Source of the DNA: a virus
Lineage: Duplodnaviria > Heunggongvirae > Uroviricota > Caudoviricetes
Strand: one strand, 5' to 3'
Length of the DNA: 3,381 nucleotides
IMG/VR virus record: IMGVR_UViG_2802429242_000011
Coordinates: 1 to 3,381 of that record
The first letter of the stretch is position 1; each line of letters begins with the position of its first letter. This document shows positions 1 through 3,381 of this stretch, piece by piece. A program made the position numbers and the translations under genes. Under the pieces are notes generated by a model. That model saw only the letters and a program-made list of their open reading frames with translations, had not been told where the DNA came from and did not search any database.

Positions 1-585
1 CTTCGCGGGAAATGTGTACCGCGAGATCTGAAAGTGAACGAAACAAATGCTGAATATCTGGTGCGTAAATTTGCTGAAGCGGAGGCCAAGTGCGCGGCGC
101 TGGCGGCGGAGAATGCGGGGCTGAAGGCGGGACATTCATATTTCTCATATGGCTCTGAGCATAATTTCGAATGGCACAAAACTGCTGAGGAAGCTATCGA
201 ATCGGCTGAGGCTGCAATTGACGACTATCGCGGTGATGCTTGCGATGGATGGAGCGAAGAGGTCGATAGTATTTGCTGGGGAATCATCATGCAATCGTCA
301 ACGAAGGTTGGCGAACGACCACGCAACGAGGATGACTGTTGTGATCCTGCGATCGATACGATTTGCGATTATGCGCTTCTGCCTAATATCGACACCCCAG
401 CCACCGATGCTTTTCTGGCTGAAGTACGGGCGCAGGGCGTGGAGATGCTGGCAAAAAATCATCAGAGTATCGTCAATGCACTTAAGGGAGATTCTCTCTT
501 TTCTGATGGTGAATACCGACATGCAGCTATTGTTTCCGCAGCTGTATATTTCGCTGCAGAGCTTCGCAAAGGAGGCTGTCAGTGA
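1..585 (+). CDS. Hypothetical phage protein, probably the C-terminal part of an Ea22-like early-region protein; 5' end likely lies upstream of the window
   Basis: Frame 1 is open from base 1 to the TGA at 583-585. The first in-window start is GTG at 34, which has no convincing Shine-Dalgarno upstream, so the true start is probably outside the window. The product is acidic and Ala/Glu-rich with a predicted coiled-coil N-terminal stretch. The stop overlaps the next gene's start (GTGA, 582-585), indicating translational coupling. The family call is from memory of Ea22-like proteins, not a search. Confidence 0.55.
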   Translation, partial: LRGKCVPRDLKVNETNAEYLVRKFAEAEAKCAALAAENAGLKAGHSYFSYGSEHNFEWHKTAEEAIESAEAAIDDYRGDACDGWSEEVDSICWGIIMQSSTKVGERPRNEDDCCDPAIDTICDYALLPNIDTPATDAFLAEVRAQGVEMLAKNHQSIVNALKGDSLFSDGEYRHAAIVSAAVYFAAELRKGGCQ

Positions 586-998
586 GCGAAATTAATTATC
601 AGGCACTGCGTGAGATAGCAAAACAGGCAACACAAGGCGAATGGGTCGCATTTATTTCGCCGGGCAAATACGGCACGTACGCCGTGCACACACCAGGAGA
701 TAATCATCACGGAGATATTGTCGACTGGCCTGGATTCGACGAACAGAAAAACGCAGAGAACAACGCTCGTTATATCGCAGCTTTCAACCCTGAAGTAGTG
801 CAGGCGCTGTTGGATGAACGAGAAGCCCAAAGCAAACGCATTGCAGAACTGGAAGCACGGGAAATTTCGCTCCCGGAACGTAGCAGCATGCTTCATCGAA
901 CAGATTTTAACGAGGATTACCACACGGTAATGGCATACAAAGTTTCTGAAGTCATCGCTGCAATCCGCGCCGCTGGCATTCGCATCAAAGGAGAGTGA
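582..998 (+). CDS. ead/Ea22-like family phage protein (138 aa)
   Basis: GTG start at 582 is preceded by GGAGG at 571-575 with 6-nt spacing. The N-terminus MSEINYQALREIAKQATQGEW, the internal NARYIAAFNPEVVQALLDEREAQSKRIAELEA and the C-terminal AIRAAGIRIKGE match my recollection of conserved blocks in lambdoid Ea22/EaD-like proteins. Stop TGA at 996-998. Confidence 0.7.
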   Translation: MSEINYQALREIAKQATQGEWVAFISPGKYGTYAVHTPGDNHHGDIVDWPGFDEQKNAENNARYIAAFNPEVVQALLDEREAQSKRIAELEAREISLPERSSMLHRTDFNEDYHTVMAYKVSEVIAAIRAAGIRIKGE

Positions 999-999
999 G

Positions 1000-1191
1000 A
1001 TGAACGGACAAATCTCAATTGTTCGACCGGGAGCATGTGACGATCGCGAGATACGAATGATTATTCGTCTGGCGATGGGGAAAACAATAACGGCTCTCAT
1101 TACTCCAGAAAATCTCGCATTAGCATTAACCGGAAAGTCAGACCTGCCAGTAGAGCTAAAGCTGCGAAATGTTGAGATTAAGGTGAAATAG
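1000..1191 (+). CDS. Small hypothetical phage protein (63 aa)
   Basis: ATG at 1000 lies 1 nt after the upstream stop and is preceded by AAAGGAGAG. The ORF fills the gap between its neighbours exactly, with stop TAG at 1189-1191 two nt before the next ATG. No recognisable domain. Confidence 0.55.
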   Translation: MNGQISIVRPGACDDREIRMIIRLAMGKTITALITPENLALALTGKSDLPVELKLRNVEIKVK

Positions 1192-1193
1192 CT

Positions 1194-1811
1194 ATGACCA
1201 CTATTACCAAAGAACGTATTGAATTGTTCATTAAAAATCCGCTTGAAAACGGGCTTACTCGTAGCGAACAAATGGAAGTGGCACGGATTGCTTTGGCATC
1301 GCTGGAAGCAGAACCGGTTGCAGTAAACGACGACATGGCTTACGCATTCCATCACGCATTGTCAGATTCATCGCTAGGCGCTGATGAAGTAGAGGAAATT
1401 AAGGCCGGTTTGCGTGCTGCCTTTGCCAACGTCACTATCCAACCAGAGCCGGTAGTGCCGGATGAAATCGAGCCAGACGATAGCAATACGTTTGATTATG
1501 TTGATGGCTGGAATGCCTGCCGCGCTGCCATGCTTCATAGTGCCGAACCTGTAAGCCAGGCTTACAAGTTGAACGCGCTAGATGGCAACTCTCCGGTAAC
1601 TCCGGATGGTTGGATAAGCTGTAGTGAGCGAATGCCGGATGATGGTCAGCACGTAATTATTTTATGTGATGGCGCATTCGTTCTTTATGCGCAATATCGA
1701 GACAGTGAGTTTTTTGATGTTGTCCGCAATGGTGAGGAGTTCTTCGAAACGCAGAGCCGCAATGTAACCCACTGGATGCCGCTACCGGAACCGCCGCAGG
1801 AGGTGAAGTGA
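1194..1811 (+). CDS. DUF551 domain-containing phage protein (205 aa)
   Basis: The C-terminal segment DGWISCSERMPDDGQHVIILCDG...VTHWMPLPEPP matches the DUF551 signature (W-I...E-R/L-P-x-D ... THWMPLPEPP) that I recall from lambdoid prophage early-region proteins. ATG 1194 has AAGGTGAAA upstream. Stop TGA at 1809-1811 overlaps the next ATG by 1 nt. Confidence 0.8.
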   Translation: MTTITKERIELFIKNPLENGLTRSEQMEVARIALASLEAEPVAVNDDMAYAFHHALSDSSLGADEVEEIKAGLRAAFANVTIQPEPVVPDEIEPDDSNTFDYVDGWNACRAAMLHSAEPVSQAYKLNALDGNSPVTPDGWISCSERMPDDGQHVIILCDGAFVLYAQYRDSEFFDVVRNGEEFFETQSRNVTHWMPLPEPPQEVK

Positions 1812-2383
1812 TGAACAACTTAATGATCGACCTTGAGACGATGGGGAAAAATAAGGATGCACCGATCGTTTCCATTGGCGCGGTGTTCTTCACTCCAGAA
1901 ACCGGAGACATCGGACAAGAATTCTATACGGTTGTCAGCCTGGACAGTGCTATGGAGCAAGGGGCCACACCTGACGGCGATACCATCCTGTGGTGGTTGA
2001 AACAAAGCCCTGAAGCACGAGCTGCAATCTGTATTGATGATACTTTGTCGATCAGCGATGCACTCTCTGAACTGAGCCATTTCATTAATCGGCACGCAGA
2101 CAATACGAAATATTTAAAAGTTTGGGGTAACGGGGCCACCTTCGACAACGTAATTTTACGCGGAGCTTATGAACGAGCGGGACAAATCTGCCCATGGGCG
2201 TACTGGAATGATCACGATGTACGCACGATCGTTACGCTTGGGCGTTCCATCGGATTCGACCCCAAAATGGACATGCCTTTCGATGGCGAACGGCACAACG
2301 CCTTGGCTGATGCTCGTCATCAGGCCAAATATGTTTCAGCTATCTGGCAGAAATTAATTCCTGCCACCAGCACAGAATTATGA
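1811..2383 (+). CDS. DEDDh-family (DnaQ-like) 3'-5' exonuclease, phage type (Rv2179c-like)
   Basis: All three Exo motifs are present in order: Exo I MIDLET (D-x-E), Exo II WGNGATFDNVIL, Exo III H-x4-D in ERHNALADARH. I prefer ATG 1811 (GGAGG at 1799-1803, 7-nt spacing) over the in-frame GTG 1808 used by the ORF track. Stop TGA at 2381-2383. Confidence 0.85.
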   Translation: MNNLMIDLETMGKNKDAPIVSIGAVFFTPETGDIGQEFYTVVSLDSAMEQGATPDGDTILWWLKQSPEARAAICIDDTLSISDALSELSHFINRHADNTKYLKVWGNGATFDNVILRGAYERAGQICPWAYWNDHDVRTIVTLGRSIGFDPKMDMPFDGERHNALADARHQAKYVSAIWQKLIPATSTEL

Positions 2384-2419
2384 TTTTCCCGGGTGCAGCC
2401 GGTTTTGATGGAGAAAATT

Positions 2420-2701
2420 ATGAACACCTTGTTTTTACTGATGGCTGAATTCAATACCCCAAACATTGAACTCTCAGCAGTTAGCCAAAAGTACTTTGGT
2501 ATGAGTCCAGCCACGGCAGAAGCAAAAGCAAACGCTTGTAAGTTGCCCATTCCAACATATCGCATCGGCACATCACAAAAAGCAAAACGTTGCATCAATA
2601 TTCAGGATCTTGCGGAATACATAGACAAAAGACGAGAAGAAGGACGTATCGAGTGGGAACAGGTCAGAACAGGCAAACAGAAGGGCAAAGAACATCACTA
2701 A
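2420..2701 (+). CDS. PrtN-family / excisionase-like small DNA-binding protein (93 aa from ATG 2420)
   Basis: N-terminus MNTLFLLMAEF followed by a ...SQKAKR..I.IQDLAEYIDKRR core resembles the pyocin-activator PrtN family, which is often annotated as excisionase in enterobacterial prophages. ATG 2420 has GGAG at 2410-2413 with 6-nt spacing. The ORF track's GTG at 2393 and the ATG at 2408 lack a Shine-Dalgarno. Stop TAA at 2699-2701 sits just before the terminator. Confidence 0.7.
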   Translation: MNTLFLLMAEFNTPNIELSAVSQKYFGMSPATAEAKANACKLPIPTYRIGTSQKAKRCINIQDLAEYIDKRREEGRIEWEQVRTGKQKGKEHH

Positions 2702-2703
2702 AG

Positions 2704-2730
2704 AAAAAACCCGCCTGAAGGCGGGTTTTC
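2704..2730. terminator. Bidirectional rho-independent terminator shared by the convergent + and - strand transcription units
   Basis: AAAAAA (2704-2709), stem CCCGCC (2710-2715), loop TGAA, stem GGCGGG (2720-2725), TTTTC (2726-2730). On the - strand the same hairpin is followed by TTTTTTCTT, so termination looks at least as strong for the - strand genes. Confidence 0.75.
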
Positions 2731-2748
2731 AAAAAGCACCAGCTATGA

Positions 2749-2922
2749 TCATGCTGCTTTGCGACGACGAAGCTTACCCTGCTGCTCTTTACCAGAGACA
2801 GTAGCGTGAGTGAACGCATTAGGAGCAGCCTTCATCATAACTTCAACAGCAGCACCCATACCTGCGAATGCTTTCATTGTGTCGAACTTAACCTGTGGCT
2901 TGGTTGCTTTTTGATCTTCCAT
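2749..2922 (-). CDS. Small hypothetical protein (57 aa), not in the supplied ORF track
   Basis: ATG is the reverse complement of 2920-2922 and TGA the reverse complement of 2749-2751. Hand translation gives MEDQKATKPQVKFDTMKAFAGMGAAVEVMMKAAPNAFTHATVSGKEQQGKLRRRKAA. GGAG sits 6 nt upstream (reverse complement of 2929-2932), an in-frame stop lies 5 codons upstream, and the terminator follows directly. Codon choice favours GCT/GGT/GTT/CGT. No family recognised. Confidence 0.55.
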   Translation of the reverse strand: MEDQKATKPQVKFDTMKAFAGMGAAVEVMMKAAPNAFTHATVSGKEQQGKLRRRKAA

Positions 2923-2961
2923 AGAAAACTCCAGAAGCTATACCGAAAAAATTCCTGTTGT

Positions 2962-3381
2962 TTACTCATCATCAATAGATGATACGCAATATTTATTTTT
3001 AAATTTAAGGTTCTTTGGCGTAACTTCATCAGATATATCAAAACCGTCCAGAATTCTATTGAATGTAGCTTCTGGCATATCATCATGAACAGAAATCTCA
3101 CCCGATCGCTGCTTTCTAACCATGTTATCCACTCGCCAAATTATAGCTTCAGCGTAAACAACATAACTTGGATGCTTGATAAAGCGATGATCACCAGAAT
3201 TCAAGACGCAAGACGGATCGTGGGGGACACCATCCTTGATACTAGAAATATTAACAACTAAAACACAATAACAATCGTTAACGGGGTAATAAACAGGATC
3301 ATTACAAATCACATGAAGATGATTGCATGGCCCAGTTGGGGCAAGCACAGTTCCTTTCCTGTATGGCTGATAATCCGTCAT
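2962..3381 (-). CDS. Hypothetical protein (139 aa), low-GC; candidate divergent MazF/PemK (Kid)-fold toxin-like protein
   Basis: ORF runs from an ATG at the very last three bases of the window (3379-3381) to TAA at 2962-2964. The start could instead lie further upstream, outside the window. GC is about 38% by my manual count, against roughly 50% for the phage genes. Ordered motif resemblance to MazF/Kid as I recall them: YQP...G..LAPTGP, CYCVLVVNISS, IIWRVD, MPEATFNRILDGF. By-eye only, unverified. Confidence 0.6.
   Translation of the reverse strand: MTDYQPYRKGTVLAPTGPCNHLHVICNDPVYYPVNDCYCVLVVNISSIKDGVPHDPSCVLNSGDHRFIKHPSYVVYAEAIIWRVDNMVRKQRSGEISVHDDMPEATFNRILDGFDISDEVTPKNLKFKNKYCVSSIDDE

Follow-up and report, generated by a model that had tools for sequence, protein, structure and literature searches.

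The DNA examined here, which we refer to throughout as the window, is a stretch of 3,381 nucleotides (positions 1 to 3,381 of the IMG/VR virus record IMGVR_UViG_2802429242_000011). Over its right end, 2702-3381, two minus-strand open reading frames (ORFs), orf57 (2749-2922) and orf139 (2962-3381), are convergent with a plus-strand operon ending in a PrtN-family excisionase gene (xis), in the arrangement and at the coordinates given by the original prediction for this sequence. A hairpin terminator common to both convergent transcription units is found at 2705-2730, and the last position of the window, 3381, belongs to the ATG of orf139, with the remainder of the module lying outside. We consider it probable that this region is composed of the shared hairpin, a backbone gene (orf57) and the PanT gene (orf139) of a PanA-PanT type II toxin-antitoxin (TA) accessory cassette within a dusA-integrating prophage. 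A module of two minus-strand genes had been proposed; its key gene, PanA, proved to lie beyond the window, and the minus-strand coding amounts to three genes' worth.

The minus-strand gene orf139 encodes a putative MazF/PemK-fold toxin of 139 residues, PanT, and its ATG shares bases with the stop codon (TGA) of the PanA gene upstream. Its G+C content is 38.3%, with 30.7% at third codon positions (GC3), which is 10 points below window positions 1-2701 (48.5%) and about 12 points below the larger plus-strand genes (49-50.5%), in agreement with the drop of about 12 points that had been noticed for one of the two genes. In a sliding-window comparison, orf139 is lower than all 420-nt windows of the backbone, the lowest of which has 44.5%. 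The foreign composition ascribed to the whole minus-strand block thus holds for orf139 and fails for orf57, which at 47.7% is like the backbone. RefSeq starts the toxin gene 11 codons downstream, giving a protein of 128 residues (L001 12583-12969; L numbers are our handles for the loci compared), and the phage records use the 139-residue form. P6 and G10, both upstream of the shorter RefSeq start, are conserved, and this and the ATGA shared with the PanA stop codon favour the longer form; the sequences support 139 residues as the right length, in which case the RefSeq start would need correcting.

The next gene upstream of orf139, on the same strand and immediately past the window edge, encodes a 190-residue protein with a standalone Panacea/DUF4065 domain; it is seen in the phages Lys8385Vzw and SKA5 and in the Escherichia coli O177:H21 chromosome. 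The protein from the two phages matches Pfam PF13274 (SocA_Panacea) with an E value of 2.2e-19 and 70.9 bits (cut-off 25.7), and its RefSeq name is "Panacea domain-containing protein"; the partner of orf139 is this Panacea-domain protein and not an antitoxin of the MazE/PemI/Kis type. The PanA stop and the orf139 start overlap as ATGA, present in both L002 and L004 (SKA5), which suggests translational coupling of the two genes. We surveyed the pairing at 26 loci from one-genome-per-species contigs, 25 of which were usable. A PanA homologue is positioned directly upstream on the same strand in 24 of the 25, abutting or overlapping the toxin gene (mostly by 4 nt), and the one locus without a visible PanA is cut by the contig end. 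The pairing is seen in gamma-, beta- and alphaproteobacteria and still holds where toxin identity has dropped to 30%, and the genes flanking the pair are not conserved. PrtN and exonuclease genes accompany it only in the two closest loci, from Kosakonia and Pluralibacter; orf57 and a phage integrase are found in none of the 26, and the sole dusA match among them is weak (27% identity, L025). Conservation of the neighbourhood around PanA and the toxin gives no sign of an operon larger than three genes. Among complete E. coli genomes, 208 of 5426 carry orf139, with a Panacea gene adjacent in all matches listed. Judged by these sequence comparisons, PanA and orf139 constitute a conserved two-gene module.

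A search with the single sequence returned 62 clusters of the orf139 family, and a profile search of a 5.8-billion-protein set widened this to 196, with members mostly from Enterobacterales, Vibrio, Shewanella and methanotrophs. An AlphaFold2 model of orf139 built on 36 homologues has a pLDDT of 93.8 and a pTM of 0.87. The first 41 Foldseek matches to this model are all MazF, at about 12% sequence identity, and PemK-like proteins come out on top in a viral structure search, so that orf139 is predicted to adopt the SH3-like barrel of MazF and CcdB (the MazF/PemK fold). Residues that are invariant down to 30% identity include G17, H21-L22-H23, C26, D28-P29, D55, L60, H65, H70, S72, Y76 and S117, with C58 nearly invariant, and those between residues 17 and 76 form the signature HLHxxCxDP ... 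D..C.L ... H..H.S...Y. We know of no canonical MazF/Kid toxin with such an invariant His/Cys/Asp signature and an acidic isoelectric point (pI). In comparison with the MazF/PemK/Kid toxins of MazEF and Kid-Kis, orf139 has about 12% identity and no profile match, is acidic with the invariant HLHxxCxDP...D..C...H..H.S signature, and is about 25-30 residues longer, with additional C-terminal helices; the antitoxin is PanA in place of a MazE/Kis-type protein. The 90%-identity cluster that holds orf139 also contains unrelated PanA sequences (541 members of 53-232 residues). This mixed cluster is probably a clustering artefact, perhaps caused by sequences spanning both of the overlapping genes or fusing them, and its size and contig counts are not attributable to the toxin alone.

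PanA-PanT systems were defined by Kurata et al. (2022, PNAS; PMC8832971), who grouped the toxins into clusters. By exact-sequence look-up, the homologue of Chimaeribacter coloradensis (locus L009), 55-57% identical to orf139, is WP_101821906.1, which is entered in Dataset S1 under "Yersiniaceae bacterium 2016Iso4", together with the PanA WP_101821908.1, in cluster pT6/T6 (PMC8832971). The same cluster holds the PanAT pair of Pantoea septica LMG 5345 (Dataset S1, PMC8832971), and this is the strain of our pairing locus L010. Cluster T6 also includes the Pseudomonas moraviensis PanT WP_083201923.1, scored "TA" and described by HHpred as "EndoA/PemK/MazF-family RNAses". The P. moraviensis PanT specifically blocks protein synthesis and co-purifies with its PanA, and within T6 it is for this PanAT that growth arrest and neutralisation by direct PanA binding have been demonstrated (PMC8832971). 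Neutralisation through direct contact is likewise reported for standalone Panacea antitoxins by Ernits et al. (2023, PMC10440598). T6 membership of the homologue and the presence of PanA upstream therefore assign orf139/PanA to the described PanA-PanT family, and by homology orf139 falls in toxin cluster T6. On sequence grounds the pair appears to belong, as an E. coli prophage representative, to a TA family that has been described and partly validated before, with the toxicity of orf139 itself putative. The E. coli proteins WP_000458583, WP_014640052 and WP_000390072 are not among the Dataset S1 entries covered.

The E. coli pair resembles the P. moraviensis PanAT in having a standalone Panacea gene upstream and the toxin gene downstream with an overlap of a few bases, and it shares with T6 PanAT systems a MazF/PemK-like toxin fold without a Pfam or CDD match. 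The two differ in setting: the P. moraviensis pair is flagged "NotPhage", whereas the E. coli/Shigella pair is positioned in a cassette slot beside the attP of a dusA-integrating prophage.

The in-window part of this AT-rich cassette is the minus-strand segment 2936-3381, with its left breakpoint at about 2935/2936, and the cassette runs for about 760 bp past the window, through PanA and its promoter region. The breakpoint is set by the match of the window to phage mEp460, which stops at 2935, 13 nt upstream of the orf57 ATG. Homology between SKA5 and mEp460 falls into blocks at 5600-6140 and 7349-8760, with flanks that are 97-98% identical; the shared left flank covers xis, the terminator and orf57, and homology returns some 60 bp short of the att core. 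In the interval, SKA5 has 1208 bp of 40.7% G+C, consisting of PanA, orf139 and 193 nt of upstream sequence, and mEp460 has 803 bp of 42.0% G+C with an unrelated gene for a protein of 177/178 residues (gp23, L003 8569-9102; L063 1-537), which gives no match in Pfam, NCBIfam or PADLOC. Lys8385Vzw, like SKA5, differs from mEp460 in the cassette while its flanks match. Among 80 IMG/VR prophage contigs with orf57, the PanAT allele is found in about 37 and the 178-residue (gp23-like) allele in about 41, so that alignment with related prophages, as had been suggested, does reveal a variable cassette at a fixed junction. The PrtN/xis-orf57 backbone DNA is found, nearly identical, in 742 of the 5426 complete E. 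coli genomes, compared with the 208 that have orf139, and in a few sequenced phages. The gap between orf57 and attP can be filled by at least two different AT-rich accessory inserts (morons), of which PanA-orf139 is one; the prophages with this slot are lambdoid, resemble mEp460, occur in E. coli and Shigella and integrate at the 5' end of dusA. The insert resembles phage morons found beside att sites in being AT-rich, present or absent among near-identical phages, probably transcribed independently of the phage operon next to it, and ended by a terminator, here the shared one beyond orf57; it differs from them in that the slot is located between xis/orf57 and attP rather than between int and xis.

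The gene orf57 (2749-2922, minus strand) belongs to the flank. It encodes a small basic protein (pI 10.2) that matches PHROG 2741, a family of unknown function, with an E value of 1e-34. It is found beside both cassette alleles and in all the related phages examined with a PrtN/exonuclease backbone, except for one Kosakonia and one Pluralibacter relative, and it is carried by five of 50,697 phage records, all mEp460-like. The reading frame is intact in 84 of 84 copies; the variable sites comprise six synonymous and six non-synonymous changes, a count too small to prove coding or selection. Codon 29 (window 2836-2838) is Met (ATG) in the window and Leu (CTG) in all 84 other copies. No transmembrane segments are predicted for orf57, its single-sequence AlphaFold2 model is helical with low confidence (pLDDT 68), and searches of Pfam, NCBIfam and PADLOC gave nothing meaningful, the NCBIfam matches of both orf57 and orf139 being far below cut-off. 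A place for orf57 as a third cassette gene was considered and ruled out, as it is retained where the other cassette is present and is missing next to PanAT in Kosakonia (L005 6417-6744) and Pluralibacter (L006 6417-6742), where PanAT directly abuts a convergent PrtN-family excisionase gene. We conclude that orf57 is conserved prophage backbone and not cargo. The proposal of a moron or defence insertion at a fixed junction therefore stands for PanA-orf139, which is exchanged for the 178-residue gene, and has to be given up for orf57, the one minus-strand gene that is present in related prophages as conserved backbone of similar G+C content.

The hairpin downstream of orf57 has 11 base pairs and a T-rich tail on the minus strand. 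The stem-loop at 2706-2729, AAAACCCGCC-TGAA-GGCGGGTTTT, folds with -16.2 kcal/mol (z = -4.4), better than any of 200 shuffled sequences. A consensus scanner recognises an intrinsic terminator only in the minus-strand direction, where the T tail is long; on the plus-strand side just four U follow the stem. A bidirectional terminator, as the original prediction had it, is hence plausible from the sequence: the hairpin is strong and canonical for the minus strand, and the plus-strand side is weaker. The hairpin is kept in SKA5 and lies in the backbone beyond orf57, outside the cassette, as a shared element.

The original prediction took the minus-strand genes as cargo at an int-xis junction, in the place where an integrase would be expected. 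The slot is instead situated between xis/orf57 and attP, with int beyond attP. Past PanA, the phages have a phage-borne dusA 5' fragment, a tyrosine integrase gene on the plus strand and dinI, and on the circular genome int follows xis at a distance of about 1.7 kb, with orf57, the cassette and attP in between. A three-way alignment places the att crossover at about 7410-7425 of SKA5 (L004), inside the dusA fragment. In the O177:H21 lysogen, the integrase adjoins an intact dusA at one prophage end (L111 6092-8315), and at the other end, about 45 kb away, the Panacea gene adjoins a remnant dusA 5' fragment (L001 13825-13929). Since attP is located between xis and int, int is found at the opposite prophage end in lysogens, and the lambda-style expectation that int follows xis does not apply. 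In contrast to the lambda-type arrangement, int is neither directly after xis nor on the same side of attP, and the two genes lie at opposite ends of the prophage. The organisation corresponds to that of elements with dusA-specific integrases, which replace the 5' end of dusA (Farrugia et al., 2015, PMC4482086): integration is in the 5' end of dusA, and a replacement 5' end is supplied. Extending the sequence beyond 3381 thus located attP, and the integrase was neither lost nor displaced by cargo. Between dinI and the tail-fibre genes of the O177:H21 prophage (L111 8847-10746), a SLATT-domain gene and a reverse transcriptase gene form a DRT system, matching the PADLOC models RTasSLATT (E 1.5e-56) and RT_UG17 (E 1e-158). 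With this insert beyond int-dinI and PanAT on the other side, both flanks of attP collect defence-type cargo, which fits the general expectation of accessory genes accumulating near this position.

We considered whether both minus-strand ORFs might be backbone or chance ORFs, with the dip in G+C an ordinary intragenomic variation and no cargo module present. This is very improbable. It is true of orf57, which is indeed backbone with backbone G+C content, and the PrtN gene itself has just 42.9%; for orf139 it is refuted by the unrelated gene that replaces orf139 and PanA in mEp460 and in about half of the 80 relatives, by a G+C content under that of every backbone window, and by a conserved family with a confidently modelled fold that recurs in other genomic contexts. 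A further alternative is that the pair is not a functional TA system in E. coli, either because the two genes form an operon with another phage-related role or because the toxin is too weak and the Panacea protein not an antitoxin. We regard this as unlikely. In its favour, the majority of the 25 PanAT candidates tested by Kurata et al. went unvalidated, with 9 validated (PMC8832971), which, like the "not toxic" score of two enterobacterial phage-borne pairs from another cluster, T1, also weighs against our main reading; the Panacea domain has also been proposed as a trigger sensor by Ernits et al. (2023, PMC10440598), and so need not always be a neutraliser. It sits poorly with a pairing and overlap that are strictly conserved in three proteobacterial classes and in unrelated contexts, with the validated member in the same toxin cluster T6, and with the fold predicted for orf139, which is the classic one of TA toxins.

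Besides these survey results, several of our own findings weigh against the reading of orf139 as a T6 PanT of the MazF type with an antitoxin of its own. Assignment to T6 runs through the Chimaeribacter homologue and the clustering of Kurata et al. rather than through a direct alignment with the P. moraviensis PanT, which is not among the best 120 of the 196 clusters from the profile search. Pfam, including PemK_toxin, gives no match to orf139 at E <= 0.01, a sequence-profile search of the PDB with the family alignment returned only noise, and hhalign of the family against an approximate E. coli MazF sequence gave a probability of 0.3%. PADLOC v2.0.0 has no defence-model match to orf139, orf57 or PanA at E <= 0.1, a result that also counts toward the pair not being a TA system. 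The cassette contains a single sigma-70-like site (9/12), 127 nt upstream of PanA, and such sites are no commoner there than in shuffled sequence. Finally, orf139 is acidic, with a pI of 5.6, and this, together with the invariant His/Cys/Asp signature, means that its RNase chemistry is not assured. The last point leads to an alternative in which the module is PanA-PanT and the toxin is not an mRNA endonuclease, the MazF/CcdB scaffold serving instead for CcdB-like gyrase poisoning or for a metal-dependent His/Cys/Asp activity. The acidic pI, the invariance of H21, H23, C26, D28, D55, H65 and H70 down to 30% identity (C58 nearly so) and the missing PemK_toxin profile match would all fit such a protein; the validated T6 member, by contrast, blocks translation specifically and not replication (PMC8832971), and we hold this alternative to be rather doubtful. 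A more far-reaching variant, which we think quite unlikely, would give the T6 PanT a metal-binding or new catalytic centre with a target other than that of MazF-type RNases, and antisense read-through from pL/xis beside attP on induction could lower PanA, coupling toxin release to induction or excision.

Gene order, the ATGA overlap, the modelled fold, the conserved pairing, cluster membership, the cassette boundaries and the places of attP and int are established by the present comparisons; that PanT is toxic and cuts RNA, that PanA neutralises it, that the lysogen expresses the pair and what the pair does there are inferred. PanA and PanT would be produced from one minus-strand transcript that starts in the cassette's own upstream region and probably runs on through orf57 to the shared hairpin. 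By homology to the P. moraviensis T6 member, PanA is predicted to bind PanT directly and hold the toxin inactive, and when PanA is lost or triggered, PanT would stop growth by a block of translation, most likely through cutting of RNA. The cassette is read opposite to the lytic early-left operon, likely from its own promoter, and as it points against that operon it is likely to be expressed in the lysogen. Most likely the lysogen or prophage gains from the pair through abortive infection or superinfection exclusion, or through addiction to the module, which would keep the prophage stable; in sequence terms the cassette resembles a TA pair, and such pairs are frequently linked to defence against phages. 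CapRel(SJ46), whose antitoxin part reportedly senses a phage capsid protein, offers a precedent for such a role. Like PanA-orf139, it is carried by a prophage; it differs in that toxin and antitoxin are fused in one polypeptide and the toxin is of the toxSAS (tRNA-pyrophosphorylating) type, where the present system has two genes, a predicted MazF-fold toxin and a putative role in defence. The CapRel(SJ46) paper (Zhang et al., 2022, PMC9712102) cites the work on Panacea/DUF4065 antitoxins, and CapRel is taken up by Ernits et al. (2023, PMC10440598) as a toxSAS toxin-antitoxin in fused form.

The remainder of the window, on the plus strand, is a typical lambdoid early-left accessory operon. It comprises an Ea22-like ORF of 183 residues without a Pfam match (34-585), a gene for an Ead/Ea22 protein (582-998), a 63-residue ORF without a Pfam match (1000-1191), genes for a DUF551 protein (1194-1811) and an Rv2179c-like 3'-5' exonuclease (1808-2383), and, as the last gene and part of the backbone, xis (2420-2701), which matches Pfam PF11112 (E 2.5e-23) and PHROG 1300 "excisionase" (E 6e-40) and is labelled excisionase in the mEp460 annotation too. 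The gene content of this operon is mosaic and differs between the phage matches. Given their overlap with the conserved reading frame of orf139, a 75-residue ORF at 2874-3101 and other such ORFs were dismissed as mechanical by-products. In the prophage copy of E. coli O177:H21, the early-left operon is broken by an IS3 insertion (L001 9906-11134) and rusA is frameshifted (L001 1598-1986), and from these lesions the copy is probably defective.

No new principle emerges from this locus: PanA with a MazF-like toxin has already been described and one T6 member validated, and the pair is tidy but ordinary phage cargo. What sets the PanT family apart is its invariant His/Cys/Asp signature, which would imply a chemistry unusual for a MazF-fold toxin. 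The analysis gives a name to a cassette pair that about 4% of complete E. coli genomes carry and that RefSeq and phage records call "hypothetical protein", and it corrects the RefSeq start of the toxin gene from 128 to 139 residues. For the dusA-integrating mEp460-like prophages, it defines the interval from xis/orf57 to attP as a two-allele accessory slot with the integrase across attP, which is useful both for drawing prophage boundaries and for the search for defence genes.

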